Assembly: GCA_964615975.1 (NCBI GenBank)
Contig: CAZTTH010000001.1
Location: forward strand, 6,559-70,558
DNA length: 64,000 nucleotides
Source: an uncultured Lentisphaerales bacterium
GTDB lineage: Bacteria > Verrucomicrobiota > Lentisphaeria > JABSQK01 > JAJFLO01
Direction of reading: 5' to 3'
The position numbers and the translations under genes are program-made. Numbering within the stretch: the first letter of the stretch is position 1; each line of letters begins with the position of its first letter. This document shows positions 15,612 to 45,502 of this stretch, one piece after another. Below the pieces are notes generated by a model. That model made no database searches, was not told the DNA's origin, and saw only the letters and a program-made list of their open reading frames with translations.

Positions 15612-16663
15612 AGAGAAAATTAACAACCAATAATTCATCGGATAATGATCCGTTAAAAATAACGAAATTAAAAAAATCTCTTCCGCTTCCGCCTCTTCCA
15701 ATTGACATTGATGGTTTGCCGTCAATGGCTGAAATTTTTGATTCTCATGACCCCCTCTCATTTCCTAATCATTCCCACCCCATTCCTCAAAAACGGATGA
15801 ATCGCGTTAGCGATTTTAATTTCCTGATTCAGACCAAAAATTTACCTGATATGGTTGAATTGATCGCCAACAATCAGTTAAATTTTAGCAAGGAAGAAGA
15901 TGATCAGGTTTGGATTAGAGAATTGAACAGTGATACATGCGTAGTTTCATTTTCTAATGGGAATATAGGAGTTATCGAAACCCAAACACTTCCGACGGGG
16001 GTAAAATTAATAAAAGGAGACCTAATATTAGTTAGATATTGTTCAAAAACCGCATCCGATTTACCTATTAGATGTCAATTTATTAAACTAATCAGTCGTG
16101 AAAAACTAGTTAGAAATCGAGCTGAACAAAAATCTAAATACCATGCGATTGCGAAGCAAAAATTTATTATCGATGCCTCAAATATATGCCGTAGCTTCAA
16201 CCCTGCTGATTCAGGATCATCGCTGTTGCCATTGCTAACCCTTGTATTGGCATTGTGCAAACGTCAAGCCCGGATTTATTGTGTCTTTGATGCAAATGAA
16301 CGTTATATATTGCAAAATAACGTTAATGAGGTTGGAAATGTTGAATTTTATCAAATGCTGCTGGATAAATTCAAGCACGTTTTTTTTGAAGTTACTCCAG
16401 GTACCCAGGCGGATGATTACCTCTTGGAATTAGCAGACCGCTTTAACTTAATTGTTATCAGTAATGATCATTTTGATAAACAACACGACCAGCACACTCA
16501 ACAGTATTCCTGGCTTAGAATTGGATCAAAGCGATTGATATCCGGCACGTTGGAAAATCAATTGCTGTGTCTGCCCAATTTAGGGTTGGAACTGTCACTT
16601 CGTGGTAATTTACCCGGGATTATCAGTGAATTGTTGCGTACGAAGATCAGAAAATCATTTTGA
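15608..16663 (+). CDS. NYN/Zc3h12a-like ribonuclease domain protein with uncharacterised N-terminal domain
   Basis: 351 aa. The C-terminal 140 aa (FIIDASNICRSF…IYCVFDANERY…ADDYLLELADRFNLIVISNDHF) align in pattern with the Zc3h12a/NYN PIN-like RNase core (IDGSNV…VFVP…DDRFIVKLA…IVSNDTY). The TTG start overlaps the upstream stop, implying coupling. The N-terminal ~190 aa are unrecognised. Confidence 0.6.
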   Translation: MKRKLTTNNSSDNDPLKITKLKKSLPLPPLPIDIDGLPSMAEIFDSHDPLSFPNHSHPIPQKRMNRVSDFNFLIQTKNLPDMVELIANNQLNFSKEEDDQVWIRELNSDTCVVSFSNGNIGVIETQTLPTGVKLIKGDLILVRYCSKTASDLPIRCQFIKLISREKLVRNRAEQKSKYHAIAKQKFIIDASNICRSFNPADSGSSLLPLLTLVLALCKRQARIYCVFDANERYILQNNVNEVGNVEFYQMLLDKFKHVFFEVTPGTQADDYLLELADRFNLIVISNDHFDKQHDQHTQQYSWLRIGSKRLISGTLENQLLCLPNLGLELSLRGNLPGIISELLRTKIRKSF

Positions 16664-30112: not shown

Positions 30113-30370
30113 AAGTCTTGAAAAGGAGTATGGTGTGTTATATGAACAGTATCTGATAATATGATTTCAGATGAAGTTCATCAACTTGCAAGGTCATGCT
30201 GACAATTGGTATTTTGCAAATACTGTATATGGTTGGAATCAGTTAATGGTGTTATAAAATTTTATTATACTATGTCGTGTGCCGATGATAAAGGCTTAAT
30301 ATTATCTGAGGCTGAGTTAATTATTCAATTCATTGTCTGGGAATGATAATAGTCCTTGAAGAGGAAGTTT

Positions 30371-31636
30371 ATGATTCGTTTAATTGAAGCCTTAAATTTT
30401 CGCAATCTAAATTATATTCGCCAACCGGTTCATAACTTTCAAGTGTTGATTGGTACTAATGGTTCTGGCAAGTCGAATTTTCTTGACATACTTTCCTTTT
30501 TAGGACGATTTATATCCAAAGGAGCGAAAGTGGCCATCACCGAACGAAGTAATAATTTTCGTGATTTGACCTGGCGTCGAAATGCCAACCGTTTTGAATT
30601 GGCAATCGAAGCTGAAATCCCCCCAGAACATCGACGTCCCTTAGACTCCCCTGAATACGATATCATTCGTTATGAGTTCGCAATTGGTATCACCCCTGAA
30701 AACCAGGATCTGATTTCATTTGATGAACAGATTACTTTGATTCAACAAAGCGAAATGACGGAGAGTGCGGTCAGCTCTTTGGAGAAAATCCCAGATACAG
30801 TATTCGTTGCTGACTACCACCAAATGTATAAGCAACTAATAGCCTATGATGAAAAGGGGAATTTATTGTTGTACCCGGAAGAGTCATTTGAAAATCAGGG
30901 GTGCCTGACATCTGACAATTACCTTTTACCCAACCGTCTCGAACCCAACCTATCGGTTTTTTGCGCCATACAAGCTTTCGAGAATGAATTTCCAGCTGCC
31001 AATTGGCTGGTACGTTTTCTCACTCAAAGTTTGTTTCAAATTCGATTGGATAGCTCCACCATGCGTCAACTCAGTCGTTATGGTCAGGAGTTTCTATTTA
31101 CCGAATATGGCGCCAAGCTGCATTGGGTAATCGAACGAATTAAAAAGGAAACACCAGATCGATTTGTTGATTGGTTGACGCAAATAAAATCACTGATGCC
31201 AGACCTCGAAGATATTGTCATCCATGAACGTCCAGATGACCGAAAAAAAATTATTGCAATCCGTTATAATGATGGGTTTGAAATCCCATCGGGTTTAATG
31301 TCAGAAGGGCTCCTGCGCTTGCTGGCGTTGACCAGTCTGCCATATTTTCCTGATAAGGGTTATCTATGTATTATTGAGGAACCTGAGAATAATCTGCATC
31401 CATTAGCTTTGGAGATTGTTATCCGGAATTTACGATCGAATTTTTCTGGTCAGATCATAATGACTACTTATTCGCCATTTGCTTTGGGATTATGCCATGC
31501 GCATGAGGTGCTGATATTTTCTGCTGATTCCCAACATGGCGCCCAAATTACCAGTGGTTCACAACACCCTGGTATCTCATATAATTTGGCTGACAGTGGA
31601 TTAAAGACTTTATTTGAAATGGGGGAATTGAATTAG
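30371..31636 (+). CDS. orphan AAA_21/ABC-type ATPase (OLD/PtuA/AriA-like P-loop protein)
   Basis: ATG at 30371 is preceded by GAAGAGGAAG. Walker A is VLIGTNGSGKSNFLD. ABC-signature-like region plus Walker B/D-loop is LLRLLALTSL…YLCIIEEPENNLHPLALE. H-loop-like region is QIIMTTYSPFAL. There is no fused nuclease domain and no partner gene. Confidence 0.7.
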   Translation: MIRLIEALNFRNLNYIRQPVHNFQVLIGTNGSGKSNFLDILSFLGRFISKGAKVAITERSNNFRDLTWRRNANRFELAIEAEIPPEHRRPLDSPEYDIIRYEFAIGITPENQDLISFDEQITLIQQSEMTESAVSSLEKIPDTVFVADYHQMYKQLIAYDEKGNLLLYPEESFENQGCLTSDNYLLPNRLEPNLSVFCAIQAFENEFPAANWLVRFLTQSLFQIRLDSSTMRQLSRYGQEFLFTEYGAKLHWVIERIKKETPDRFVDWLTQIKSLMPDLEDIVIHERPDDRKKIIAIRYNDGFEIPSGLMSEGLLRLLALTSLPYFPDKGYLCIIEEPENNLHPLALEIVIRNLRSNFSGQIIMTTYSPFALGLCHAHEVLIFSADSQHGAQITSGSQHPGISYNLADSGLKTLFEMGELN

Positions 31637-31724: not shown

Positions 31725-32939
31725 TTAATTCGTTATCGTTGGCGTCAGAGTTGTGAGTGAACATTTCATAAGTTCAGGAATATCGAGTTTGGATTCTTCA
31801 TCAAGTACACGGCCAAGCAAGGCGCCGGTAGCAGGCGATCGTGGTTCAAACACTACGCAACAATCTGGACTATATTGTTCCGATATTTCCAAAGTGCCAA
31901 TCCTGCGTCCGATCGACACGGTCTCATACTTATCCATGCTGATTAATGGCCGAAGGATCAAATAATCTGTAGCGCGATTGATTGCATCCATGTTTTTGAG
32001 CGTTTGACTAGCTACTTGTCCGACGACATCACCCGTTACCAATGCTGTTAATTTCAAAACCCGCGCCACGTGTGCGGCTATGCGTATCATCAATCGCCGG
32101 TAAAGAATGGTGCGATATTTATCCAGGCAAATATCCCGGATGATTTTTTGCGCTGCACTGATATTGCAAGCGTACAAGATTCCTGCGGTCTGATAACGAT
32201 TTAAGACTTTGACCAGTTGCCCCACCTTATCCAATGTTTCTGCTGGAGTGTAGGGATAACTGTGAAAAGTGAGAAAATGCAATCGGGTTCCACGTTTCAT
32301 TGCAAGATAACTGGCCACCGGTGAATCGATCCCTCCGGATAATAATGACAATGCGCTTCCATTCGTTCCACTGGGAAGCCCACCTGGACCGGGAAACTCA
32401 TTAAAATAAATGAAGCTCCAATGTTCTCTAATCTCGAGACCAATATCGATCTTTGCCTCCTTAAGATTCAACTGCAAGCGCGGATAACCACGTAAGAATA
32501 AGTCCGAAAAATGGATTTCAATTTCCTGTGAAGTCATGGGAAATGGTTTCCATCCCCGTCGGGCACGCATACGATAAGTGATTGGCGTGTCATCTCCAAT
32601 CTGACCAGCACTGAGTTGATAAATTTCGGGGAAATGACTCTTGATGGCTGCCACAATGGTGGAAAAATCCGTTGCTACCTTGATCCCTGGGGAATAGGAT
32701 GATAGGCCAAAAACCAGAGGCATTCGACTATAAATGCCTGCGAGTTGTTCAGTAGTAAAAGGTTGAAAGCGGGATTGGTGCAATAATATCCGGCCGCGTT
32801 CACGCAGGAAAAGCGGCTCCATAATGTCCTGTATGGTCCGTTTGATCCCAGTCAAAAACAGCCGTTCGAACATACCGCGATTATGTCCCTTGGTGGCTAT
32901 TTCATTGTACCGACACATGATTGTGTTATACAGCGGCAT
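31725..32939 (-). CDS. thiI: tRNA 4-thiouridine synthase / thiamine biosynthesis protein ThiI
   Basis: Start trimmed to an internal Met (MPLYNTIMCRYNEIATKGHNR…), leaving THUMP and PP-loop ATPase regions (SGGIDSPVA). The 24 upstream codons in the track ORF are translation of the tRNA-Gln repeat. Confidence 0.85.
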   Translation of the reverse strand: MPLYNTIMCRYNEIATKGHNRGMFERLFLTGIKRTIQDIMEPLFLRERGRILLHQSRFQPFTTEQLAGIYSRMPLVFGLSSYSPGIKVATDFSTIVAAIKSHFPEIYQLSAGQIGDDTPITYRMRARRGWKPFPMTSQEIEIHFSDLFLRGYPRLQLNLKEAKIDIGLEIREHWSFIYFNEFPGPGGLPSGTNGSALSLLSGGIDSPVASYLAMKRGTRLHFLTFHSYPYTPAETLDKVGQLVKVLNRYQTAGILYACNISAAQKIIRDICLDKYRTILYRRLMIRIAAHVARVLKLTALVTGDVVGQVASQTLKNMDAINRATDYLILRPLISMDKYETVSIGRRIGTLEISEQYSPDCCVVFEPRSPATGALLGRVLDEESKLDIPELMKCSLTTLTPTITN

Positions 32940-32979
32940 GAGAGGGTAGATAAGTAAGAAATTAGCAACTGAATAAAAT

Positions 32980-33031
32980 TGGTTACCCCGCCTGGACTCG
33001 AACCAGGACAAACAGGATCAAAACCTGTTGT
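32980..33031. repeat. 52-bp direct repeat (att site), partial 3' copy of tRNA-Gln
   Basis: TGGTTACCCCGCCTGGACTCGAACCAGGACAAACAGGATCAAAACCTGTTGT is identical to 41779-41830. It corresponds to the 3' 52 nt of the tRNA-Gln gene. Confidence 0.9.
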
Positions 33032-33147
33032 TATAGGTATAAAAATTAAATAGTGTGGTTGTTATGTGGTGATAATTCATGTATAATAGTGTCATATAGT
33101 TTCTATTGGTGTTAGTTAAATCATTAATCAATTAAAGGGATAATCGT

Positions 33148-34467
33148 ATGGCACGTCATAACAAGGGCACACTCTACAAACGCGGTAAAATTTACTGGCT
33201 TGAATATTACGTTAATAATGAGCGAATTCGAGAAAGTCTTAAGACCAGCAATCTCAAAGAGGCACAATCCAAGCGGGATATAATAATCAACGACCTGAAA
33301 GCCCGCAAGAATGAAGACAAACATATCGCTATCCTCCATCGAGTCAAAGATGCAGAACATGCCCGCATAGAAGCCGAACAGAAACTTCAGGATTTCCGCG
33401 AAGAAAACCGAACTAAATTGAAAATAACCGATGTTTGGGAGCATTACCTTGCCAGTAAAGAACGTCCTCAATCCGGTCAAGGAACATTAAAGGATTACGA
33501 TTATTGCTGGCGGAAATTTGTTATGTGGTGGTCGAATAATGATGGCGATCAACGCCCGTATGTAGAGGACATCAAAAAAGAAGACGCCTCGAAATTCGCC
33601 AGATTTCTTGATACAGAACAATTAAGTCCGAACCGTTACAATAAAATTATTATTTCCTGCAAGCTGGTATTAAATGTTATTGCCCCTTTATGCAATGATA
33701 TGGCCAATCCTTTTGCCGGGATTCGGAATAAACGGCTTGACCCTCAAGGTCATCGAAAATTGACCGTTGAAGAACTCCGAATAGTGTGTGGTAAAGCAAC
33801 CGGTGAAATGCGCGTTTTATTTGCGATTGGTTTGTTCACTGCTCTGAGAATGGGAGATTGCTGTACTTTGCAATGGAACGAAATCAGTTTAGAACTTGAT
33901 CGCATCGTTAGAAAACCCAATAAAGTCAAAAGTCGTAAGAAAAAGAATACCCTTATTATTCCCCTGCACCCCGATCTCCGGAAAATCCTTGTTGAGATCC
34001 CCCAGGATACGCGGCAAGATTATGTTTTACCTGAATATGCCAGTCTCTATCTTAGAGATCGTGGCGCGGTCAGCAAAAAAATACAGCAACACTTTACTGA
34101 TTGTGGAATAGATACCAAGGGGGGAAGGACTGGAAAAAATGCACCGCCCGAAGTTGGATTCCATTCGCTCAGGCATACCTTTGTCAGCATGGCTGCTCAA
34201 GCGGGTGTTCCATTACCGATCATTCAGGAATTGTGCGGCCATGAATCTTCTGCCATTCAACAGGTATATCTTCATATGGGAGAAGATGCTACCCGGCAAG
34301 CTATCCTAGCCTTGCCGAATATCGGCAATCCCGTTAACGACAACCAGCTTCTCCCGATGCCATCCAGTCAATCCCGAAATCAAGAAGCCATCGCCTTACT
34401 GAATTCCATGAATGCCAAAAACTGGGATGAAATCAAAGATAAAGTAATTAGAATACTATCTTCTTGA
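33148..34467 (+). CDS. int: tyrosine-type site-specific integrase
   Basis: 439 aa; catalytic residues in …TALRMGDCCTLQW…, HSLRHTFVSMAAQAG and …VYLHM (R…HxxR…Y). Sits adjacent to the attL repeat. Confidence 0.9.
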   Translation: MARHNKGTLYKRGKIYWLEYYVNNERIRESLKTSNLKEAQSKRDIIINDLKARKNEDKHIAILHRVKDAEHARIEAEQKLQDFREENRTKLKITDVWEHYLASKERPQSGQGTLKDYDYCWRKFVMWWSNNDGDQRPYVEDIKKEDASKFARFLDTEQLSPNRYNKIIISCKLVLNVIAPLCNDMANPFAGIRNKRLDPQGHRKLTVEELRIVCGKATGEMRVLFAIGLFTALRMGDCCTLQWNEISLELDRIVRKPNKVKSRKKKNTLIIPLHPDLRKILVEIPQDTRQDYVLPEYASLYLRDRGAVSKKIQQHFTDCGIDTKGGRTGKNAPPEVGFHSLRHTFVSMAAQAGVPLPIIQELCGHESSAIQQVYLHMGEDATRQAILALPNIGNPVNDNQLLPMPSSQSRNQEAIALLNSMNAKNWDEIKDKVIRILSS

Positions 34468-34479
34468 CTCAATTTAGAC

Positions 34480-35970
34480 TTAATCATTATTGGAGTTAAA
34501 CCATCGAATTTCTTTGTCAATAGCAGCTATAATTGAATTTGGAAATATGTAAATAAGGGGAAAATATACACCATGTGAACGGTAATGTAACGCGGTTACA
34601 ATAAAACCGATTTTACTCATAGCCATATTATCATATTTGAGCTGATTAAATATTTGGCAAACTGCTGCTTTTGAACATCCTAAAATTTTCCCTATATCAG
34701 TTAAAAAAGGCTTCAGATCAACCATTCCCTTCTTTGCATCATGTCTTTTTATTCGCCTTAGTGATTCCAATTCATTTAATGTCAAACCGATATCACTCGA
34801 AACAGTTTTTGCGATTGTGTAAGATTCTAAATCTTGGTCTATTGGGTACCAGCACATCCCACATTCCGGGCACTTAACTTCAATGTTAAAATTCGAATTA
34901 TCATCATTTGACAACTCGTCATCTTTCCATTTTTCGTCAGTATCAACTACATAAGATGTTCGATTTTTATCAATCCATTTCCCCTTTATTTGGCATGTCT
35001 GACAAACTAGTTTGCTTGGAGCTAAGATTTGATTAAGAAACCCTTTAACCAAAACATAAGTTTCATGGTTATTGAGAGTTGGATTTTTTCTCTTTTGATA
35101 TTCAAAAAGCTTTCCATAAATTAAATCAAAATAAATCTTTTCATCTTGAGGATTTCTTTTTTGACTAAAAATCGAATCTAAGTGAATCAGCAAACCTTGG
35201 ATGTATCGAATTTGCCCATTTGTGAATGAAGTCATCAAATTCATAAATTCATTACTGGGCTTTGGTAAACACGGATAAAGTTTTTTTGATAACTCACATA
35301 CCCTGGCATCCTTGAAAGTTGTTTTACAAGAATATTTAGGTAGCCTTATATTTTTTGTTAACTCCCGTGGCATAAAAAGTAATCGCCACAAGATAATTAT
35401 CTCTCGTGTTTTTGACGATTTCACAATGATATTATTTGCTTTGGGCTTCCAGTTCCATTTTATAACTGCATCTAATGAATAAAATTTTTTCTTATCTCTC
35501 CTCTCTATTGAATTCCCTAATTTCCCCTTATTAGCTGCTCTTTTAATTGTTGGAATTGATTTGCCAGTTAGTAAGTTTATATCATCATATCCCAGTCCCT
35601 TATCGTACCCCCATGAAGTTTGAACCCTCGGATTAATTAAGGTTTTTTTATATATCTCCCTCAATCGTTGTAATTCACATTCAAGAATCTTGTTTTGGTC
35701 AGTTAAAGTTAAATCAATTCCATGTAACCTGATCTTTATGTTTGCAGATGGAGGAAAAACTTCCCATTCTTTTGGAAAGTAAACTTTGAATGGAATTTTG
35801 AATTCAAATTCATAGTGGTCAATGATTGAAGCCAGAATATTTGTCAATAACTCATATATAAAGTATATAGCGTTACTTTCTTCTAATTCAGTAATTCTTC
35901 CCTTCTGCAAGTCGTTATCCAAAACGCTCGATCTTAACGGTGTGTTCATAATCTTCTTCATAGGTCGCAT
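34480..35970 (-). CDS. hypothetical 496-aa island protein (Zn-ribbon CxxC…CxxC, C-terminal HTH-like segment)
   Basis: Long AT-rich ORF convergent with int and divergent from the XRE gene. Contains CQTCQ…CPECGMC and a C-terminal DIGKILGCSKAAVCQIFNQL helix-turn-helix-like stretch. No family recognised. Confidence 0.55.
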   Translation of the reverse strand: MRPMKKIMNTPLRSSVLDNDLQKGRITELEESNAIYFIYELLTNILASIIDHYEFEFKIPFKVYFPKEWEVFPPSANIKIRLHGIDLTLTDQNKILECELQRLREIYKKTLINPRVQTSWGYDKGLGYDDINLLTGKSIPTIKRAANKGKLGNSIERRDKKKFYSLDAVIKWNWKPKANNIIVKSSKTREIIILWRLLFMPRELTKNIRLPKYSCKTTFKDARVCELSKKLYPCLPKPSNEFMNLMTSFTNGQIRYIQGLLIHLDSIFSQKRNPQDEKIYFDLIYGKLFEYQKRKNPTLNNHETYVLVKGFLNQILAPSKLVCQTCQIKGKWIDKNRTSYVVDTDEKWKDDELSNDDNSNFNIEVKCPECGMCWYPIDQDLESYTIAKTVSSDIGLTLNELESLRRIKRHDAKKGMVDLKPFLTDIGKILGCSKAAVCQIFNQLKYDNMAMSKIGFIVTALHYRSHGVYFPLIYIFPNSIIAAIDKEIRWFNSNND

Positions 35971-36055
35971 CAAAAGATCCTAATAGCTTAACCTTTGTAA
36001 GGAGTTAACGCCAACATACGTGGCAATAACAACCAAAAATATAAAGGCAAGTATT

Positions 36056-36283
36056 ATGAATGAACAAACCCCATTAAGGAAACATCGGCTATCAAAAAAA
36101 TGGACGATGTCAAAGCTGGCAAAAGAAGCCAGAGTCTCACTATCAACACTATCAAGATATGAAAACGACTGGGACACACCAACATATCAAACAGCTCAAC
36201 GCCTGGCTATCGCCTTGGAAGTGGAAGTCAGTCAAATCTATCCCAATAAGACTCTTAAAGAATCGGGGAGGGCTCTGATATGA
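36056..36283 (+). CDS. XRE-family helix-turn-helix transcriptional regulator
   Basis: MNEQTPLRKHRLSKKWTMSKLAKEARVSLSTLSRYENDWDTPTYQTAQRLAIALEV is a canonical HTH_XRE. The ATG at 36056 is preferred over the track start. Confidence 0.8.
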   Translation: MNEQTPLRKHRLSKKWTMSKLAKEARVSLSTLSRYENDWDTPTYQTAQRLAIALEVEVSQIYPNKTLKESGRALI

Positions 36284-36630
36284 AATTCAAGAACAAACCT
36301 CCTGAAAGTACACTCCTGGCAATTGTCCATCTGATTCAACCATTTGTCAGAGAAGAAATAACCCCCCAACTTCTGATCGAGACCTTGAAGCAATTCATTC
36401 CCAATCATGAAGCAAACAACCAAACTTCATCAATCCCCATTGCAAAATCGATTTCGATAATCGAAGCGGCCAACCGTCTCAATGTGAGTAAATCAACGAT
36501 CTGGAGATTGATCCGGGTGGGGATACTGAAACGATCAAAACTGGGCTCAAGAACCGCTCGCATTTCAGAACGTGATCTTGCAGCATTGATAGAGAAGGGA
36601 GGTTACGACTATGAGAAAAAACAATCGTAA
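36280..36630 (+). CDS. AlpA/excisionase-family HTH protein (HTH_17-like)
   Basis: C-terminal SIIEAANRLNVSKSTIWRLIRVGILKRSKLGSRTARISERDLAALIEKG matches MerR-type excisionase/AlpA HTH. Overlaps the XRE stop. Confidence 0.65.
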   Translation: MKFKNKPPESTLLAIVHLIQPFVREEITPQLLIETLKQFIPNHEANNQTSSIPIAKSISIIEAANRLNVSKSTIWRLIRVGILKRSKLGSRTARISERDLAALIEKGGYDYEKKQS

Positions 36631-36841
36631 TCACTCTCAACAAGCATACTTTGTCGGCCATTATACTGGAAAACAGATTCCCAAATGTACTTGTTGTGGG
36701 ATCCTCATTACGAACTGGAACCTTGGCGGGAGCAATCGAGAAAATGGAAGTACCATTACTGGTAATGTTCCTTGCAATCGTTGTGTCGATCCTGAATGCC
36801 CACCGGATTGTTTAGTTGTAAAAGAGGGAGTCAGCTTATGA
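36611..36841 (+). CDS. small Cys-rich (zinc-ribbon-like) protein
   Basis: 76 aa with CTCCG…CNRC…CPPDC. The ATG start overlaps the upstream gene, and its stop overlaps the primase ATG (ATGA), suggesting a coupled operon. A small ORF, so uncertain. Confidence 0.4.
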   Translation: MRKNNRNHSQQAYFVGHYTGKQIPKCTCCGILITNWNLGGSNRENGSTITGNVPCNRCVDPECPPDCLVVKEGVSL

Positions 36842-39390
36842 ACACCCCCCTTATCCAATTCATGATCGACGACTTGGCAAAATCCGGAATCTCATACAAA
36901 TGGGCTGTAAAACACGGATTAAGACCAGTGAATGCCAATGAATTGGCTTCCATGCTTGGATTTTCCCCCAAGAATATCAACGGTAACCAGTGTGAAGGTT
37001 ATGTAATCCCGTTCTTTGATCCCATCACGAAAAAACCCATGTTTTGCCCAGATGGTCACCGTGATTATGTTCGCGTCAAGCTCCGTGTTCCGGCCATCGA
37101 CAAAGATGGCGACCCGGCAAAATACCTTTCACCAAAAGATGCTGGCCAACATGCTTTGATTCTGCCTGAAGTCCATGCTTATTTACAAGATTCACAAAAG
37201 CCGGTAATAATAACTGAAGGTGAGAAGAAAGCCTTGGCTGCAACCCTGGCTGAATTGCCTACTATCGCATTGACCGGCAATCATGGCTGGAATATCGGCA
37301 AGACCAATGAACTATTGCCGGAATTATCCCGCTATATCGATCATAAACTGTGGATTGCCGTTTATGATTCCGATGCCAAAATCAATCCTGATTTTCACCG
37401 TTCCTTGGCACGAATGGCATTCGCGCTGTCAAAATTTGATTGCCAGCTCTATGCCGTCTATCTCCCGTCCATGGGCAACGGCAAAGTGGGGATCGATGAT
37501 TACTTGGTCGAACATGGCAAGACCATTGACGACTTAACGCGATACATAAATGAAACCAAAACCCTGGTCTCCACTGAAGATATTCCAATATCAACAAAAC
37601 CGTCGAATCACAAATCCAAGCGTTCACCCAATCAAGCGGAATTATTGGTACGTTTGACTAAAGAAATCACCTTATTTCACGGCCTTGAAGATTGCACCAA
37701 AACATATGCCAGCATTTCAATCGACAATCATTTTGAAACTTGGCCATTAAACAATCAATGTTTTTATAATTGGTTATCAAAACAGTATTATAAGACATAT
37801 AAAAAAATCCCCGGATCACAAGCAATTAACGATGCAGTAAAAACCGTTCAGGGCATTGCTCAATTCGACAAAGAAGCAATTCATGTGGGAATAAGATTCA
37901 CTTTCTATCAAGAAAGTATTTGGCTTGATCTGTGCGATCCAGAATGGCGAATCGTTAAAATTTCATCCAATGACTGGAAAATCGTTTCCGCCAAAGATGC
38001 CCCGGTAAAATTTATTCGTCGTCGTGGAATGCTACCATTGCCACAGCCTCAATCGGGGGGAAACTTCGATGATCTCAGACAACTATTGCATATCGAAGAC
38101 GATCAAAATTGGTATTTGATACTTGGTTGGCTGACCGGAGCATTACATCCCACCGGTGGATATCCCATGTTGGTAGTTAATGGCGAACAGGGGAGCGGTA
38201 AAAGCACACTGTGCAAATTTTTGCGATACTTAATTGATGCCAATACTGCCGCCCTGCGTCGCCCCCCCAAAGAACCAAAAGATTTATTCATTGCCGTTAA
38301 AAACAGCTACTTGATTGCATACGATAATCTTTCCAGTGTTCCTGATTGGTTATCGGATTCTTTGTGTACAATATCGACAGGTGGTGGATTTGCGACGCGG
38401 GAATTATATAGCGATGATGAAGAAATAATAATAAACGCTGTACGCCCGATAATCATTAATGGCATTCCCAACCTGGGGACTCGATCCGATTTGGTGGATC
38501 GTTCAGTTTGTCTACAAATGAAAGAAATTCATAACCAACAACGTAAAAGCGACCTTTACCTTGAAAATGAATTCTCTCGTTTAGCCCCATCTCTAATTGG
38601 AAAACTATGCGAAACCGCATCACATGGACTTCGTAAATATCGGCAAATTGAATTATCTGAAACGCCACGCATGGCGGATTATGCTCAATGGATTGTCGCT
38701 TGTGCCCCCGCCTTGGAATTTCATGAAAATACTTTACTGAATGCCTATCTATCTAATCGTCAGGAAATCAATCTTGATACCCTTGAACATTCGCCGCTTG
38801 CCAAAATAATTGAACGCTATTTGGAATCCGATCATCGATGGCAGGGAACATGCGGAGAACTCCTTAAGGCATTTCAGAAACTTTGTAATGATGATACTTC
38901 AGTATCTTCATCAGATTTACCCAAAACATCAAGAAAACTATCCAATGATCTAAAGCGCATTGCACCCAATTTGCGTATGAACGGGATCGAAGTTCAATTC
39001 GGTAACAAAACGAATAAGGGCAGGACAATCACTTTAGAAAAGGTTGGGAAAACACCGTCACATCCGTCACCATCGTCACAAAATAATCATAAAATATTGA
39101 ATACGAATAACATAGATTCTCATACAACCAGTGATCATTGTGTGACGTTTACCCAGAAGAGTGACGATACCGATTCATTATCAAATAACCCGGTGTCGAT
39201 TGAAGAAAGAAATATGATCATCAGTGATGGTGGAAAAGATTCGAAAGTCACCATCGCAACCAGTTGCAAACAAACTTCTTCTGAATCAACAGATCATTCA
39301 AGTGACGATAGTGACGATTGCCACCCCATATCTTCTAAATCGATATCTGAGAATGAATATGATCCCAATGTTACAACCTGGTTGTATTGA
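36838..39390 (+). CDS. replication primase-helicase (TOPRIM/DUF3854-like domain + P-loop NTPase) with Ser/Asp-rich C-terminal tail
   Basis: TOPRIM-like PVIITEGEKKALA…IAVYDSDAKIN…GIDDYL. Walker A VVNGEQGSGKST and Walker B LIAYDNL, typical of P4/D5-type primase C-terminal helicases. The last ~130 aa are low-complexity S/D/T-rich. Confidence 0.8.
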   Translation: MNTPLIQFMIDDLAKSGISYKWAVKHGLRPVNANELASMLGFSPKNINGNQCEGYVIPFFDPITKKPMFCPDGHRDYVRVKLRVPAIDKDGDPAKYLSPKDAGQHALILPEVHAYLQDSQKPVIITEGEKKALAATLAELPTIALTGNHGWNIGKTNELLPELSRYIDHKLWIAVYDSDAKINPDFHRSLARMAFALSKFDCQLYAVYLPSMGNGKVGIDDYLVEHGKTIDDLTRYINETKTLVSTEDIPISTKPSNHKSKRSPNQAELLVRLTKEITLFHGLEDCTKTYASISIDNHFETWPLNNQCFYNWLSKQYYKTYKKIPGSQAINDAVKTVQGIAQFDKEAIHVGIRFTFYQESIWLDLCDPEWRIVKISSNDWKIVSAKDAPVKFIRRRGMLPLPQPQSGGNFDDLRQLLHIEDDQNWYLILGWLTGALHPTGGYPMLVVNGEQGSGKSTLCKFLRYLIDANTAALRRPPKEPKDLFIAVKNSYLIAYDNLSSVPDWLSDSLCTISTGGGFATRELYSDDEEIIINAVRPIIINGIPNLGTRSDLVDRSVCLQMKEIHNQQRKSDLYLENEFSRLAPSLIGKLCETASHGLRKYRQIELSETPRMADYAQWIVACAPALEFHENTLLNAYLSNRQEINLDTLEHSPLAKIIERYLESDHRWQGTCGELLKAFQKLCNDDTSVSSSDLPKTSRKLSNDLKRIAPNLRMNGIEVQFGNKTNKGRTITLEKVGKTPSHPSPSSQNNHKILNTNNIDSHTTSDHCVTFTQKSDDTDSLSNNPVSIEERNMIISDGGKDSKVTIATSCKQTSSESTDHSSDDSDDCHPISSKSISENEYDPNVTTWLY

Positions 39391-39406
39391 ATGGAGTGAA
39401 CGATTG

Positions 39407-39697
39407 ATGAACCCGTCATTATCTCACCGTGCTTTAATTATTCAGAAAGCGTTGCCATTAGATAAACAACCCGAATTCAGTAAACGCTGGCAATTCTTTC
39501 ATGATGACTTACATAAAGCTGTAAATTTCCTGAATAGAATTGAACGAACCATCACACAATTAACTACTTCAACTTACGAAGCCCCATGCAACCCCGATCC
39601 TTCATGCGTACCCTTGAACCTACCCCGGAAACCCAATGAATCGAGTGTCCAATTGCTGGATCGGTGCTACAAGGCTGACGGTTATATCAAAGCCTAA
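39407..39697 (+). CDS. hypothetical small island protein
   Basis: ATG at 39407 just after the primase stop (MNPSLSHRALIIQKALPLDKQPEF…). The longer track ORF (39224..) overlaps primase in another frame and is trimmed. Confidence 0.35.
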   Translation: MNPSLSHRALIIQKALPLDKQPEFSKRWQFFHDDLHKAVNFLNRIERTITQLTTSTYEAPCNPDPSCVPLNLPRKPNESSVQLLDRCYKADGYIKA

Positions 39698-39727
39698 ACA
39701 TAATTCAAACTACAAGTGGAGAAGACC

Positions 39728-39901
39728 ATGACACGACAAGAAGTTATCACCATTTTAGAGCGGATGATTCGCGACGAAAATACCATTGATTATGATCGGA
39801 TACAGGCGATTGCGGAGTTGGCAAAAATCCAAGGCTTTTATGCCCCCAATCAATTCATAACCAAACTACAGCCATGCCTTGAATTAATGAACCTCAACTG
39901 A
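39728..39901 (+). CDS. hypothetical small protein
   Basis: 57 aa from an ATG preceded by GGAGAAG. No motif. Confidence 0.3.
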   Translation: MTRQEVITILERMIRDENTIDYDRIQAIAELAKIQGFYAPNQFITKLQPCLELMNLN

Positions 39902-40384
39902 CAACTTCATGGGTTCCTTAATGCCTTTGACCGTTGTCATGTGTTCATATACCGATATCGCCCGGGCAGCCGCAATCCTTCGAGAGACCTCCCGCGTACT
40001 GATTGTTCCGGGTGGGGTGTTCAAATTCAGGTTTGCATTGTAGTTTTCAGAACGTATGGGCGGGAACTCCCCGGCCAATTTACAATCGATTTCAATTGCC
40101 CTCAACCGATCCGCCACATTCAGGCTGTCATTAAACATCAGTTGACTTAATAATTCCCGCTTTTCCTGCAATGTCGCAACTTTGCTTTTGGCAACTTCCT
40201 TCTGTAGCTCTTTTATTCTGTCCTGAATACCAACATTTTTCAACAAAAGCCGGGAAGCTGCCGATGCCGCAATCTTGGGATTTTTCACATTCCACCCGCT
40301 TTTCCGATACGCTTCAGCCTTGGAATACCCCTCCGCGATCAATTGCGCGAACTTCTCATATCGTGGATGATTGATCACAGACAT
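39884..40384 (-). CDS. terS: phage terminase small subunit (Terminase_2/P27 family) homologue
   Basis: 166 aa; PRYEKFAQLIAEGYSKAEAYRKSGWNVKNPKIAASAASRLLLKNVGIQDRIKEL matches the Terminase_2 N-terminal HTH consensus. Confidence 0.7.
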   Translation of the reverse strand: MSVINHPRYEKFAQLIAEGYSKAEAYRKSGWNVKNPKIAASAASRLLLKNVGIQDRIKELQKEVAKSKVATLQEKRELLSQLMFNDSLNVADRLRAIEIDCKLAGEFPPIRSENYNANLNLNTPPGTISTREVSRRIAAARAISVYEHMTTVKGIKEPMKLSVEVH

Positions 40385-40457
40385 AATTCCAATTTCTTAC
40401 ATTCATAAGTTTTATACAAAGCATAAGCGACTTAATATAAACGCCACTAACTTATCT

Positions 40458-41240
40458 CTAATTTTCCTTCTTCCATTTCCATGGAGGTATCGGGCTGGTG
40501 TCTGCCCATAACCCGATCTTTTTTTCACGCGCATCTTGTTCAGTGGAATTAAAAACCCCTGAACACGGTTTATCATAATTATAACACCATGCTAACCCTT
40601 CTTTTAGCATTTGATAATTAACGGTCGTTTCTAAAAGTTTGTTTTCATCATCAATCAATTCAGTTCCATCATCAATCAATTTTTTTTTATCCAGTAATAA
40701 CACAATCCCAATATAGAAATCATGTCTTTCTTTTTTTTCACATATTACCATAAGTGGAACACTTCCTTGTGTTAGCTCGGAAGACACTAATTTAGTCAAA
40801 TAAAATTTTGCTTTATATCCATAAGGTTGATCTAATTCTGGTGCATCAATTCCCTTAAGTCTAATTACGTACAATCCATGATCGTCATCCGATCTGATTT
40901 TTAATGTATCTCCGTCAATTATGGATTCTGCCATTCCAGAAAACGACATTGTTTCCAATTCGTTTGATTTCACAATCGTTTCTTGTCCAGGAAGTTCTGG
41001 TTTTGCTTTTTTATCATCCATCAAACCATCAACCTGTTTAAATTTATTATCAGACCAAGACCACTCATAGGTTTTGAATGCACCAAATTTTGTGTCAAGG
41101 ATTACTATTACCGATTGATTTGCTCTTGCTGTGTGTACTTGATACCGTCCAATGTCCACATTTTGTTTATGACAATACCAGTATAGCCACATCGAAAAAG
41201 CAAAGAAGAGATAAAGTATAGCTATTTTTATATTGCTCAC
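40458..41240 (-). CDS. membrane-anchored thermonuclease (SNase-like) domain protein
   Basis: 260 aa with an N-terminal TM segment and a C-terminal SNase core (DGDTLKI…IRLKGIDAPELDQPYGYKAKFYL…LKEGLAW…AREKKIGLW). GTG start. AT-rich gene. Confidence 0.8.
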   Translation of the reverse strand: MSNIKIAILYLFFAFSMWLYWYCHKQNVDIGRYQVHTARANQSVIVILDTKFGAFKTYEWSWSDNKFKQVDGLMDDKKAKPELPGQETIVKSNELETMSFSGMAESIIDGDTLKIRSDDDHGLYVIRLKGIDAPELDQPYGYKAKFYLTKLVSSELTQGSVPLMVICEKKERHDFYIGIVLLLDKKKLIDDGTELIDDENKLLETTVNYQMLKEGLAWCYNYDKPCSGVFNSTEQDAREKKIGLWADTSPIPPWKWKKEN

Positions 41241-41778
41241 TTTATCGATATATAATTGTGTTTATGAGTCATTGGGTTGGTTATATCATTAAACAATAAG
41301 TGCGATAGCAATGAATTGTTTGAGGGATACTCATCAATTCTTTATGATTTTTCCTGTGACGATTATAAATTAAATTCGTTATATTCTATGTTCCTTACCA
41401 TTTAATGGTTGTGAATTTCTCATTATCGTTTGTAGTGATAACAAATCACAGACGGTCATTCATCAAGATTTTGATTAAAAATAATCAGAAATTGCCAATC
41501 TGGCAACTCATGATAAAATTTCTAAACAACCACTGTACCACCAAAATAATTGTTATGGATGAGTGGCATATTTTTGTCAGACTCTTTAACACCTTCCGGA
41601 AACATCCCCAAAAATATTTTGAACCTACCCCCACAGGTCGTGATCGATAATGCCCCCGCCCCCCCTCCATATTAAAACGACCAGCCTAAAGCAGACTGTG
41701 GTTGTTATGTGGTTGTTATTCGGGGGCAATGTGGTGGTTTCATAAAGTGTCAGATAGGCTTTATTAGCCTCAAATGAA

Positions 41779-41853
41779 TGGTTACCCCGCCTGGACTCGA
41801 ACCAGGACAAACAGGATCAAAACCTGTTGTGCTACCGATTACACCACGGGGTA
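41779..41853 (-). tRNA. tRNA-Gln (anticodon TTG), intact; 3' 52 nt form the right att repeat
   Basis: Minus-strand sequence TACCCCGTGGTGTAATCGGTAGCACAACAGGTTTTGATCCTGTTTGTCCTGGTTCGAGTCCAGGCGGGGTAACCA. Acceptor TACCCCG/CGGGGTA. Anticodon stem ACAGG/CCTGT with loop TTTTGAT. Confidence 0.85.
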
Positions 41854-41985: not shown

Positions 41986-43296
41986 TTAATTATTGTTTTC
42001 GACACGCATGATGGCTTGATAAATATTCGCGAACAAAGTTTCTAATTTATCGAATGGTGTCGATGAATATGCGACCCGGATTACATCGTTAAGCACGATA
42101 ACTCCGGTCGAATATTCTTTAAGTAATAATTTACGAACGAGTTCCGGATCGACTTTTTTGGGTTTTAAGCACATGAAATAACCGGAATTGAAGGGCAGGG
42201 GATCCCAGGCATTGGTGTATTCAGGATGAGTAGATAATATGATTTTAATCTGATCATAGCGCCGTTTCAATGTGGCATATTTCTGGCGTTTTTGCGCTTC
42301 ATAATCCCGGGAATTGTAGGCCTGGTTTAACAATGCCTGTGAGATATTCGGGCTGTTGGATATATTGCCACGGATCGCGCCGGCTGTCTTAGCTTCCAAT
42401 GCGGTATACAAAGCGGGAGTGCCGCCCTTGATGGCATAGGTGATAAAACCCACACGAAAACCCCAGACATAATCTTCCTTGGTTGAGCCGTCAATCTTGA
42501 TGGTAAGGACACGTTCGTGCAGATTCGCCAAATATGGAAAGATGGATTCCGTGAGAATACCAGGTTCAAACACCAGGCCGAAATATGCGTCATCGATGAT
42601 TATGACAATGTTATTGCCAGCATCAGCAGCCTCATAGATGACATCACGGATTTGCTCTGCTTCGGCTGGCGACACCGTATAACCGGTGGGATTGTTGGGG
42701 AAGTTCAAAGATACAATCCGTTTACCGGTGGGACCGGTCTGGAGCAGTTCTTTCAGCCCTGCGACATTGAATCCATTGTTCAGGTTAAAGGTTGGGAAGG
42801 TATGAAAACATGTGCCATAAGCGTTTTCGTACATCAACTGATAATTTTCCCAGAGCAAATCAGGCGTATAAAAGCGATCACCCTCATTGATAAACAAATA
42901 ACCACACATGCTCAATCCATGAGTCAACGCACAAGACACTATCGGCATACTGATAGCAATATCTTTAAGCGCTGGGTTTTTCTGATAAATCATTTTTTTC
43001 CAGGTCGCACGAATATCCGGACGTCCGGGACTGGGCGCATATGGGAAGATTTCATTGCTATCCTGGATCACAGCTTGTGAAATACAATCCAGGCACATTG
43101 GTGCGCCGTTATCTTCCAAAGCGATACCAATGGTGGCATTAACCGCTTTGCCTTTTGCTTCAGCCGCCTGCGCGAGTATGCCCCTTTGTGGAAAGTAAAT
43201 GGACTTACCGCGTGCCGAGAGCATTTCGGGAAGATAGGGATTCGCATTTCGAATAATTTCGTTCAACTCGCTTGCTTGGATGTTCAAATCACTCAT
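41986..43296 (-). CDS. class I/II PLP-dependent aminotransferase
   Basis: 436 aa with NFPNNPTGY and the Lys-containing DGSTKEDYVWGFRVGF motif. Exact specificity not assignable. Confidence 0.7.
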   Translation of the reverse strand: MSDLNIQASELNEIIRNANPYLPEMLSARGKSIYFPQRGILAQAAEAKGKAVNATIGIALEDNGAPMCLDCISQAVIQDSNEIFPYAPSPGRPDIRATWKKMIYQKNPALKDIAISMPIVSCALTHGLSMCGYLFINEGDRFYTPDLLWENYQLMYENAYGTCFHTFPTFNLNNGFNVAGLKELLQTGPTGKRIVSLNFPNNPTGYTVSPAEAEQIRDVIYEAADAGNNIVIIIDDAYFGLVFEPGILTESIFPYLANLHERVLTIKIDGSTKEDYVWGFRVGFITYAIKGGTPALYTALEAKTAGAIRGNISNSPNISQALLNQAYNSRDYEAQKRQKYATLKRRYDQIKIILSTHPEYTNAWDPLPFNSGYFMCLKPKKVDPELVRKLLLKEYSTGVIVLNDVIRVAYSSTPFDKLETLFANIYQAIMRVENNN

Positions 43297-43480
43297 TATT
43301 ATTCCTGTTCTGTTGCTGGGAGTTTAAACCGATTGGTGAATCAAATACACCTGTCCAATATACCATGAGTTACTGAATTGTAGTATATAACGTTTCGATA
43401 ACAAGGGATAAATTTCATCATTAAGGCAGGACGCAATCGTCATTCATGGATATAATAATAAATTTACGTTTATATGAATC

Positions 43481-45502
43481 ATGGATATCGGTTTCTTAAA
43501 CCCACAACAACAAAAAGCCATTCAAACCGTCAATGGTCCCCTCCTGGTGCTGGCTGGCGCCGGCACTGGTAAAACCACGGTGATCACTTATCGAGTGGGC
43601 TGGATGCTGAAAAACGGTATCCGTCCGGATCAGATCATGGGAGTAACATTTACCAATAAAGCGGCAGCGGTGATGAAACAGAAAATCACCCAATTACTAC
43701 CGGAGGTAAATCATCGCTCAATGTATATTGGCACCTTTCATTCCTTTGGCTATCGCATGTTGTGGCAGTTTATCGATCGCCTTGGCTACTCTCCTCAATT
43801 TGGAATCGCGGATGCGGATGATCAGGAAAAGCTGATCAAGGATATCGTCAGGGAAAGCGGCCTTTCAGGTAGCGACTTGAAACTGGACTTTTTTATTCGC
43901 GGGATACGCGATGCCAAGAATCGCCAATTGACGGAGAATGATATTCGCCAATCCGGCAGTATGCCGTGGTTTCAAAAATTAGCCGATGTTTATGTTGACT
44001 ATCAGGCACAATTGAAAAAACAAAATCTGGTGGATTTTGACGATTTAATCGCCTTGCCCTGCAAAATCTGGCGGGAATATCCCGAAACCCTGGAAATCTG
44101 CCATAAGAGATTTCAATACCTGCTTGTCGATGAATACCAGGATACTAATGCCAACCAGAGTCAATTGATTGACCTGTTGGTGGGTATAAAACAAAATGTG
44201 TGTGTAGTCGGCGACGACGATCAATCGATTTATGGATGGCGCGGTGCTGAAGTTAAAAACATACTTTTGTTCAAAGAACGTTATCCTAATGCTGCGGTGA
44301 TTAAACTTGAACAAAATTATCGGTCAACTACACATGTGCTGGCGGCAGCAAACAATGTGATCGCGCATAATTTTGAACGTCATCCGAAAGCTTTGTGGAC
44401 TGCCCGGGAGGATGGGGAACGGTTGCAAATAATTCATCTCGAAAATGAACAAAAAGAAGCCAAGCTGGTAACCCGCTTGATTGAACATTTACTTTATGAA
44501 ATGCGCTTGACCTACAAAGACTTTTTAGTATTGATTCGTTCCAATTTTCAATCCCGTCTCTACGAACTGGCATTTCACGAAAGTCATATTCCCTATCGTA
44601 TTGTCGGCGCCAAATCATTTTATGAAAGCCGTGAAATCAAGGATGCCCTGGCATATTTAAAGATTCTTTATAATCCTCATGATGAGATCAGTTTGTTGCG
44701 GATCATCAATGTTCCCGCACGTGGGATTGGGGACAAGACCTTGGAAAAATTATTGGGATTGCGACAACAGATCAATAAACCCTTATTGATGGTGATGTCG
44801 AGTCCCGAAGCACAGAAAATTCTGCCACCCGGTGCCTGGGCGAAACTGCATGCGTTCAATATGACATTACAACGCTGGCAAATAAATTTTCAACAATCCG
44901 GTCGTTTAGCGGAAAAGATCAAAGAGTATTTAACAGACATGGAGTTTTTCTCGTCAGTCGAACAACTCTATCGGGATAAAGATGAACGCGATCAAAAAGC
45001 GCGAAGTGATAACCTGAATGAATTCATTATTTCAGCAACTCTGCTTGAAGAGCGTCTCGGGCATATGACTTCTCTGAGTGAATTTCTTCAGACGTATGGT
45101 TTGATGGATGATCAGGATCGTGTCAAGGAGGAGAATCGAGCAAGTGGAAATTCGGTTAATTTAATGACCGTGCATGCGGCGAAAGGCACAGAGTTCCCGG
45201 TCGTGATAATAGTTGGTTTGGAGGAGGAGTTTTTCCCCCATGCCCGCTCGCTGGAAGAAAATGGTTTGGAAGAAGAAAGACGCCTGTTTTATGTGGCGTT
45301 GACTCGTGCGCAACAAAGGGTATACATGACGTGGGCGCACACACGCGCGAAATTTTATCAGCGTGAAAGGCGCTATCCATCACGTTTTATTCACGAACTT
45401 CCGCCCGAACATGTCAATCATACCAAGGAACGAGATATCTTCCTGCCAGCCAATCCTACTGATGTTGCAGCGGTTTTCGCCGATATGAAAAATCGGTTTT
45501 AA
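43481..45502 (+). CDS. UvrD/Rep/PcrA-family ATP-dependent DNA helicase
   Basis: 673 aa; LNPQQQKAIQTVNGPLLVLAGAGTGKTTVIT (motif I) and VDEYQDTN (motif II), plus a C-terminal helicase domain. Confidence 0.9.
   Translation: MDIGFLNPQQQKAIQTVNGPLLVLAGAGTGKTTVITYRVGWMLKNGIRPDQIMGVTFTNKAAAVMKQKITQLLPEVNHRSMYIGTFHSFGYRMLWQFIDRLGYSPQFGIADADDQEKLIKDIVRESGLSGSDLKLDFFIRGIRDAKNRQLTENDIRQSGSMPWFQKLADVYVDYQAQLKKQNLVDFDDLIALPCKIWREYPETLEICHKRFQYLLVDEYQDTNANQSQLIDLLVGIKQNVCVVGDDDQSIYGWRGAEVKNILLFKERYPNAAVIKLEQNYRSTTHVLAAANNVIAHNFERHPKALWTAREDGERLQIIHLENEQKEAKLVTRLIEHLLYEMRLTYKDFLVLIRSNFQSRLYELAFHESHIPYRIVGAKSFYESREIKDALAYLKILYNPHDEISLLRIINVPARGIGDKTLEKLLGLRQQINKPLLMVMSSPEAQKILPPGAWAKLHAFNMTLQRWQINFQQSGRLAEKIKEYLTDMEFFSSVEQLYRDKDERDQKARSDNLNEFIISATLLEERLGHMTSLSEFLQTYGLMDDQDRVKEENRASGNSVNLMTVHAAKGTEFPVVIIVGLEEEFFPHARSLEENGLEEERRLFYVALTRAQQRVYMTWAHTRAKFYQRERRYPSRFIHELPPEHVNHTKERDIFLPANPTDVAAVFADMKNRF

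Follow-up and report, generated by a model that had tools for sequence, protein, structure and literature searches.

Phage satellites mobilise genes for defence, virulence and resistance and influence the dynamics between phages and their hosts. Among the described groups, those closest to the element considered here include the phage-inducible chromosomal islands (PICIs), such as the SaPIs of Staphylococcus, whose origins consist of iterons flanking an AT-rich stretch beside rep, and the EcCICFT073-type islands of Proteobacteria. P4 integrates in a tRNA gene, encodes an alpha protein with primase, SF3 helicase and DNA-binding domains, and relies on recognition of the cos site of its helper, while staphylococcal cassette chromosome (SCC) elements integrate through serine recombinases at a site outside tRNA genes. 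In the SatelliteFinder scheme a PICI has five core components and a median size of 9.5 kb; more than 99.9% of the PICIs so recognised are in Proteobacteria or Firmicutes, their accessory genes lie between int and the regulators and beyond terS, and the gene order of P4 is alpA-epsilon-alpha (PMC10085698). Here we describe an 8.8-kb island in a 64-kb stretch of contig CAZTTH010000001.1 from an uncultured Lentisphaerales bacterium (this whole stretch is called the window below, and all sequence-wide counts of repeats, iterons and 16-mers refer to it). We lean towards reading the island as an integrated, probably still functional PICI-type phage satellite, for which "hitcher" island, dependent on a helper, would be an equally fitting name.

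That the island entered tRNA-Gln by site-specific integration is as good as certain. A repeat search showed that the 3' 52 nt of the tRNA gene recur with 100% identity at the other end of the island, at a spacing of 8,799 bp, and a 35-nt part of this direct repeat is found in two copies in the 64 kb even when 3 mismatches are allowed, where shuffled sequence gives an expectation of 0.00. The repeat extends from the encoded CCA end over the acceptor 3' strand, the T arm and the variable loop and takes in the entire anticodon arm; the 5' 23 nt of the tRNA gene (41831-41853) are unique and lie outside it. This layout is the standard footprint of recombination between attP and attB inside a tRNA gene, and the excised circle would measure 8,799 bp. 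As in other tRNA-integrated islands, the tRNA-derived repeats have the intact tRNA at one end and the element has its own site-specific recombinase gene beside an att site, int being 117 nt from the left core. A first-pass annotation of this DNA had already claimed an intact minus-strand tRNA-Gln(TTG), the exact recurrence of 52 nt and site-specific insertion in the 3' part of the tRNA; ARAGORN and Rfam agree on the tRNA, the recurrence is confirmed as a perfect repeat whose 35-nt core occurs only twice in the window, and the perfect repeats together with the element-encoded tyrosine integrase bear out the insertion. ARAGORN found three tRNAs in the window, tRNA-Gln(ttg) among them, and the Rfam scan of the window gave tRNAs only and no other RNA family.

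Further sequences that may serve the integrase lie just inside both ends. The 16-mer GTGGTTGTTATGTGGT has exact copies in the window only at 33055 and 41698, the latter about 60 nt inside the right core and within a tandem (2.1 copies, 41697-41719) of the 11-mer TGTGGTTGTTA, of which an inverted partial copy lies at 41525-41543. With up to 3 mismatches the 16-mer has 4 matches in the window, compared with 0.34 expected. In the excised circle the core would have one copy on either side, all within about 130 bp, which may be an integrase arm-type layout. A promoter scan found a promoter-like TTGTTA-17-TATAAT at 33059-33087 (+), upstream of int and overlapping the left 16-mer.

Between the repeats (Table 1) the gene calls and the order given in the first-pass annotation (int, divergent ORF, XRE, helix-turn-helix (HTH) protein, zinc-ribbon ORF, primase-helicase, terS, nuclease) all hold, and so does its statement that capsid, tail and lysis genes are lacking, as capsid, portal, tail, head-tail connector, holin and lysin families have no Pfam or PHROG match in any island open reading frame (ORF). 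Judged by functional criteria with Pfam and PHROG families, in place of SatelliteFinder's own profiles, the island has, counting a putative regulation module, four of the five PICI core components and none of the forbidden ones (tail, holin, portal, head-tail connector), at a size of 8.8 kb against the median of 9.5 kb. The integrase is present (PF00589, phrog_1), the regulation module, which calls for an alpA, merR or stl homologue, has candidates in the HTH_17/phrog_66 and XRE genes, the primase-replicase is represented by DUF3854 and a helicase with a model like the Reps of SaPI5 and SaPIbov1, and the small terminase subunit (TerS) by its PF03592 and phrog_51 matches and its similarity to a phage TerS of solved structure. 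The fifth component, capsid morphogenesis, has no head or morphogenesis family among the island ORFs scanned, and it is absent also from bona fide SaPI-type PICIs, called Type B (PMC10085698). As far as sequence can tell, the island is Type-B-like by these functional criteria. The capsid-forming type (cfPICI), which has its own capsid, portal, protease and head-tail connector, does not apply to it, and 8.8 kb would leave no room for such genes.

Table 1. Features of the island and of its insertion site (positions in the window)
Feature	Position	Strand	Basis or remark
Distal att site, displaced tRNA-Gln fragment (copy of 3' 52 nt)	32980-33031	-	Direct repeat, 100% identical
Candidate integrase arm-type site GTGGTTGTTATGTGGT	33054-33078	+	Exact 16-mer, 23 nt inside left core; predicted function
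Tyrosine integrase, 439 aa, reading into element	33148-34467	+	PF00589 3.8e-17; phrog_1 4.2e-48
496-aa near-orphan ORF, divergent from XRE operon	34480-35970	-	No family match; GC 0.326
XRE/Cro-CI-type HTH regulator, first gene of rightward operon	36020/36056-36283	+	HTH_3 8e-12; phrog_3 7e-12
HTH_17 (MerR/Xis/AlpA-superfamily) protein	36280-36630	+	PF12728 8.6e-10; phrog_66 3.9e-9
76-aa Cys-rich ORF (CxxC...CxxC)	36611-36841	+	ORF and Cys pattern; overlaps both neighbours
DUF3854 primase-helicase (Rep)	36796/36838-39390	+	DUF3854 1.1e-13 and P-loop
Candidate replication origin	39056-39316		Iterons inside 3' end of rep gene
Small ORF, about 96 aa from ATG after rep stop	39407-39697	+	ORF only; no family match
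61-aa ORF	39716-39901	+	phrog_5334 E = 0.004 only
TerS homologue, 166 aa, Terminase_2 family	39884-40384	-	PF03592 27.5 bits (cutoff 26.1); phrog_51 8e-15
SNase-fold nuclease, 260 aa	40458-41240	-	PF00565 4.4e-12; phrog_452 endonuclease 2.6e-11; PADLOC SNc+LTD 2.5e-7
Candidate arm-type sites, tRNA-proximal end	41525-41732	+	Repeats; predicted function
Proximal att core	41779-41830	-	3' 52 nt of intact tRNA-Gln, element-supplied
tRNA-Gln(UUG), anticodon ttg, intact	41779-41853	-	ARAGORN; Rfam tRNA 64.7 bits

The likeness to PICIs extends to the arrangement of the parts, with int at one end, a divergent regulator pair, an HTH protein of the Xis/AlpA superfamily, a pri-rep gene with an iteron origin at its 3' end, an own TerS, accessory genes beside int and beyond terS, and no virion or lysis genes. 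Unlike in PICIs, the primase domain is of the DUF3854/Toprim kind, the regulator position is held by the 496-aa near-orphan, and the island proteins lack sequence-level homology to known PICI proteins beyond domain families. The host, moreover, is uncultivated and possibly Lentisphaerota-like, and induction and helper dependence are predictions for the island.

The regulatory and replication genes form one rightward series of overlapping ORFs, from XRE (whose start is likely the ATG at about 36056) through HTH_17, which begins 4 nt before the end of the XRE stop codon, and the Cys-rich ORF to the DUF3854 protein. The HTH_17 protein is a candidate excisionase and/or operon activator, in line with the phrog_66 label "excisionase and transcriptional regulator", and its gene lies directly upstream of the DUF3854 gene in every relative examined. 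It had been called AlpA-like in the first-pass annotation, which is right with respect to the HTH_17 family (PF12728), whereas Phage_AlpA itself (PF05930) gives no match at E <= 0.01. The 76-aa Cys-rich ORF has no family match, and a counterpart is absent from the relatives. Only short, unconvincing repeats were found when the 86-bp divergent region was inspected for operators.

It is very probable that the island has a Rep together with its cognate origin. Rep is composed of a Toprim-type primase (DUF3854), a D5/SF3-like P-loop helicase, a C-terminal helical/winged-helix region and a disordered tail, and its best relatives, 37-39% identical, come from metagenome-assembled genomes (MAGs) of Acidobacteriota/Pyrinomonadaceae and from metagenome contigs. 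An AF2 model built on 20 relatives has a mean pLDDT of 77.6, with the disordered tail beginning at residue 742. Foldseek searches of the PDB with this model gave matches at E = 1e-9 to 1e-6 to the PrimPol of African swine fever virus, SCCmec Cch (5dgk), the SaPI5 primase-helicase (7ola), SaPIbov1 Rep (8tch), NrS-1, poxvirus D5/E5 and, for the N-terminal part, DnaG primase (2au3), while sequence searches against the PDB recognised only the P-loop. The first-pass call of a primase-helicase ("pri-rep") is supported at the level of the fold by these matches and by DUF3854; proteins joining DUF3854 to a helicase have been shown experimentally to be plasmid replication initiators in cyanobacteria (PMC10079941).

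The candidate origin lies within the 3' end of the rep gene, in the part that encodes the Rep tail with pLDDT below 50. Three direct CGTCAC iterons in 9-bp phase (39056, 39065, 39074) are followed by a spacer with 75% AT (39080-39140) and by four inverted copies (39142, 39161, 39302, 39311), so that 7 of the 17 CGTCAC copies of the window are packed into 262 bp, a clustering to which a Poisson model with lambda = 0.072 assigns P of about 2e-12 per 270 bp. Relatives whose Reps are 33-39% identical, from Acidobacteriota MAGs, metagenome contigs and a phage-like contig, have the same CGTCAC array at the same 3' position of rep (L081 12209-12366, L115 12208-12367, L119 12209-12355, L117 12220-12364), again with three iterons in 9-bp phase and then inverted copies. 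In the phage-like contig L083 (array at 3629-3828) all direct and inverted copies read CGCCAC/GGTGGCG. Both orientations have changed together, in a region coding for disordered protein, and this points to selection on the DNA. The primase-helicase fold of Rep and a conserved, co-varying iteron origin are thus features of the island, and the iteron array is likely to be a general origin signature for the DUF3854-type replicon family.

The same replicon is found in other settings. Islands with HTH_17 and a DUF3854 Rep and without a recognisable TerS carry a recombinase (tyrosine or serine), an XRE gene and defence cargo, so that defence systems seem often to travel with the DUF3854 replicon. 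The cargo in L081, L115, L117 and L119 consists of type I restriction-modification with an Mrr-like nuclease, of SIR2-STALD or of a Schlafen-type helicase. The helicase part of Rep is present also in IMG/VR contigs, including L083 with its large terminase subunit (TerL), and in Microbacterium phage Zeta1847. From its occurrence in islands and a phage-like contig, and that of its helicase part in plasmids, the replicon is a general mobile-element module and not specific to satellites.

TerS is the presumed packaging-specificity factor of the island. In tblastn searches of phage genomes it is 36% identical to TerS of Pseudanabaena phage Pam5 and 28% identical to that of a Bacillus phage, and in the PDB it matches the Pam5 small terminase (21di, E = 2e-7). 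A close homologue is lacking in a collection of 5.8e9 proteins, in which a word-based search returned only TerS itself, and a scan of viral contigs for TerS relatives or a helper found none. The 61-aa ORF has its 3' end in convergent overlap with the 3' end of terS by 18 nt. It was considered as a second TerS or a mimic, for which there is no support, as its only match is phrog_5334 and it has no similarity to the island TerS.

The nuclease gene lies upstream of terS on the same strand, is AT-rich and encodes an N-terminal hydrophobic anchor. The nuclease is accessory cargo; a part in the packaging machinery was also considered and appears unlikely, given the N-terminal membrane anchor. No known defence family was found in the island, where PADLOC gave only HTH and SNase noise.

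The 496-aa ORF has no match in Pfam, PHROG, PADLOC, the PDB or phage genomes (tblastn). Of 1.84 billion representatives covered by word-based and full HMMER searches, only P0130 (7e-7) and P0131 (1.6e-4) are related to it, and scans of metagenome and viral contigs with the three-member alignment found nothing more. The three proteins have in common an HTH-like segment (about residues 125-150), an ILWR motif and a CxxC...CxxC zinc ribbon, and their profile gives a weak match to the P2 Cox regulator/excisionase (4lhf, E = 0.014); a single-sequence AlphaFold model was unusable (pLDDT 33). From its position and the weak Cox-like match, the 496-aa protein is a candidate master regulator. The first-pass annotation had taken the AT-richness of this gene and of the nuclease gene as a sign of horizontal origin. 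The low GC itself is confirmed (0.326 and 0.346, about 10 points below the 0.42-0.47 of the other island genes and the 0.41-0.47 of host genes), whereas the inference is weakened for the 496-aa gene, because both of its homologues are also AT-rich compared with the other genes measured in their loci, so that AT-richness here looks like a trait of the family and is no proof of recent import.

Both P0130 and P0131 are encoded in small elements with an integrase homologous to that of the island (which shows the motifs ALRMGD, HSLRH, GHES and VYLH); of the loci fetched, L121-L124 have the integrases that match the island integrase best, with 26-28% identity over the full length. P0131 belongs to an element of about 12.8 kb between imperfect AAATTATATACA repeats (L122 32-12870, and also L123 and L124), where its immediate neighbours on the two sides are the integrase gene and a divergent XRE gene. 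Its order is int, P0131, divergent XRE, a phrog_66 HTH gene, a ParB-like protein and an 805-aa DnaG-type primase-helicase, followed by small ORFs, an ERCC4 nuclease, a Terminase_4 TerS and a sigma-70 factor. The architecture is that of the island, with homologous int and large ORF, but the Rep, nuclease and TerS families differ, which we read as modular, non-orthologous replacement that would have taken place within one group of satellite-like elements. Because this element keeps a TerS of another family, retention of TerS is recurrent in the int/large-ORF group, and its architecture is the strongest comparative argument that the island TerS may be functional and not a relic. It is tempting to go further and to speculate that int and a protein of about 500 aa with Cox-like HTH and zinc ribbon define an unrecognised phage-satellite lineage in uncultivated bacteria, in which the large protein would be a new type of master regulator in the role of Stl, sensing the helper phage, and modules would be exchanged (DUF3854 for DnaG-type Rep, SNase for ERCC4, Terminase_2 for Terminase_4). 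Taken as a whole, we regard this extended proposal as rather improbable.

Other described elements resemble the island in part. With P4-like satellites it has in common the insertion by a tyrosine integrase in a tRNA 3' end and an AlpA-superfamily HTH gene upstream of a large replication protein with primase, SF3 helicase and C-terminal DNA-binding region. It cannot be placed among them, as there are no psu, delta, sid or epsilon matches among the ORFs scanned, and its terS implies redirection of a pac/headful type, in contrast to the dependence of P4 on cos. SCCmec-type islands are likewise integrative, with a D5/SF3-type self-loading helicase, and Cch is a top structural neighbour of Rep; SCC elements are without TerS, whereas the island has TerS, a tyrosine integrase and a tRNA att site. 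The CyRepA proteins of cyanobacterial plasmids are replication initiators with an N-terminal DUF3854/Toprim domain joined to a helicase (PMC10079941), which in those plasmid Reps is of the DEXDc kind, while the island Rep has a D5/SF3-like P-loop domain and belongs to an integrative element. The phage-inducible chromosomal minimalist islands (PICMI) of Vibrionaceae, small satellites of reduced gene content that lack genes for capsid remodelling (PMC10803314), may be comparable in this respect; their host family is different.

The TerS gene and the architecture argue, with modest confidence on our side, for packaging that depends on a helper phage, as in a true PICI-type satellite. The PICI or satellite assignment of the first-pass annotation stands as far as architecture, size and gene order are concerned; the satellite status is less secure, because no helper phage, empty site or capsid-morphogenesis gene was found. 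Several further observations weigh against it. TerS is only just above its Pfam threshold, and, unlike in PICIs, its gene is on the strand opposite to the replication operon and no capsid-morphogenesis, Ppi or Rpp-type gene is recognisable. The nearest Rep relatives, in Acidobacteriota and other MAGs, have no TerS by Pfam or PHROG, and the helicase part of Rep occurs in small plasmids of Methanothrix, Methylobacterium and Stanieria. The 496-aa protein may alternatively be accessory cargo in an int-proximal hotspot. A genome-contig scan for an empty attB, guided by the flanking aminotransferase, gave relatives of at most 61% identity, none with a neighbouring tRNA-Gln.

The main rival to the satellite reading is a phage-independent replicative island, that is, a self-replicating integrative island or integrated plasmid-like replicon, comparable to SCC-type or Rep-bearing islands, in which terS would be an inherited or inactive leftover or would encode a repurposed DNA-binding protein. 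It draws on the occurrence of the same Rep and origin module in the TerS-less islands with defence cargo and of its helicase part in small plasmids, on the place of SCCmec Cch among the top structural neighbours of Rep, and on the role of DUF3854 Reps as plasmid replication proteins (PMC10079941). The terS gene is nevertheless intact, with a GC of 0.467 that is host-like or higher and without signs of decay, and the second int/large-ORF element keeps a TerS as well, of a different family. We know of no established role of a small terminase subunit outside DNA packaging, and the island has no partition, relaxase or conjugation genes that would give it another route of transfer, so that we consider the phage-independent island possible but doubtful. 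A decayed prophage that retained genes for integration, regulation and replication together with part of a packaging module could likewise explain a phage gene such as terS, and in L083 HTH_17, the DUF3854 Rep and iterons indeed stand beside a large terminase, a ParB-methylase and a serine recombinase. A remnant is nonetheless unlikely given that the two att copies match perfectly, the ORFs are densely arranged and overlap, no pseudogenes or structural-gene fragments were found in the island, TerS has no TerL remnant next to it, and a similarly small and complete architecture recurs in L122-L124. Least probable, and to our mind very unlikely, is an integrative mobilisable element that is transferred by a hijacked conjugative system: a small integrative element with int and a Xis-like HTH protein could be of this kind, and Toprim/DUF3854 domains also occur in proteins of conjugative elements, but Pfam and PHROG gave no match to a relaxase, coupling protein, MOB-type or type IV secretion system family in the island ORFs, and the presence of TerS points to packaging in capsids.

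If the island is indeed a helper-dependent satellite, its cycle might be as follows. The integrase would recombine attP, made up of the 52-bp copy of the tRNA end and the 16-mer arm sites, with the 3' half of tRNA-Gln; the outcome seen today is a rebuilt tRNA with the displaced 3' fragment left at the far end, and catalysis by this integrase is presumed. In the resting state the divergent pair, the 496-aa protein with its Cox-like HTH and zinc ribbon and the XRE protein, would keep the rightward operon off. Upon induction the operon would provide the HTH_17 protein as excisionase and/or activator, the Cys-rich protein and Rep, which is predicted to bind the CGTCAC iterons embedded towards the end of rep itself and to replicate the excised circle. 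TerS would then recognise the element DNA and recruit the large terminase and the capsids of a helper, and the element would leave the cell in phage particles, a step that we infer because TerS is present and virion genes are absent. The membrane-anchored SNase nuclease would be carried along as accessory cargo.

The surroundings of the island are ordinary chromosome, with genes for ClpB, GlmS, sugar aminotransferases, a glycosyltransferase, ThiI, a PLP aminotransferase, PcrA and histidine kinases. We also considered a helper prophage in another part of the window and discarded it, as the other large ORFs scanned are housekeeping, signalling, cell-envelope or other non-phage genes. The first-pass annotation had noted an unusual host lineage, and this agrees with our data: clustering at 90% leaves every tested host protein a singleton, the relatives of the flanking aminotransferase are at most 61% identical and scattered over the PVC and FCB phyla, and the divergent aminotransferase-PcrA pair (41986-45502) is common only to two marine Lentisphaeria MAGs, L001 and L028, with identities of 61%/46% and 52%/42%. 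These data suggest, if weakly, a poorly sampled PVC-like host, the gene pair being the only clue among them to its affiliation. The exact 72-nt tRNA-Gln sequence has 0 matches in metagenome contigs and the 46-nt att core has 0 in viral contigs; exact matches of window proteins on other contigs were not found either, and no sister element was retrieved.

On the left side, the most likely start of ThiI is 32939, which leaves 40 nt to the left repeat and no overlap with it. Before the insertion thiI directly followed tRNA-Gln on the same strand, and the int end of the island is now 40 nt upstream of its start; transcription of ThiI may now depend on the att core or on island-end sequences (32939-33147). 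Farther left and outside the island, an AAA ATPase at 30356-31636 (+) resembles MAD3, a methylation-associated defence protein, below the family cutoff (NF047739, 311 bits < 420 bits), and a 351-aa protein with a NYN/Zc3h12a-type RNase domain is encoded among housekeeping genes at 15608-16663 (+).

As now delimited, the element comprises its att sites and putative arm sites, a Rep whose iteron origin has been mapped, and a TerS, and the CGTCAC iterons, TerS and the 496-aa regulator candidate are handles for experiments. The kind of element is already known and its host is unusual; the finding is an incremental extension that does not overturn current understanding, and its useful new detail lies in the origin, the arm sites and the int/large-ORF lineage. 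The co-varying origin in the 3' end of DUF3854-type rep genes gives a practical annotation rule, which covers the replicon of the islands in Acidobacteriota and other MAGs and of the phage-like contig. Should the proposed satellite lineage prove true, the island would be the first prediction of a satellite-helper system in a PVC/Lentisphaerota-like host. Nearly all known satellites come from Proteobacteria and Firmicutes, and a candidate in a deep uncultivated lineage would extend this picture.

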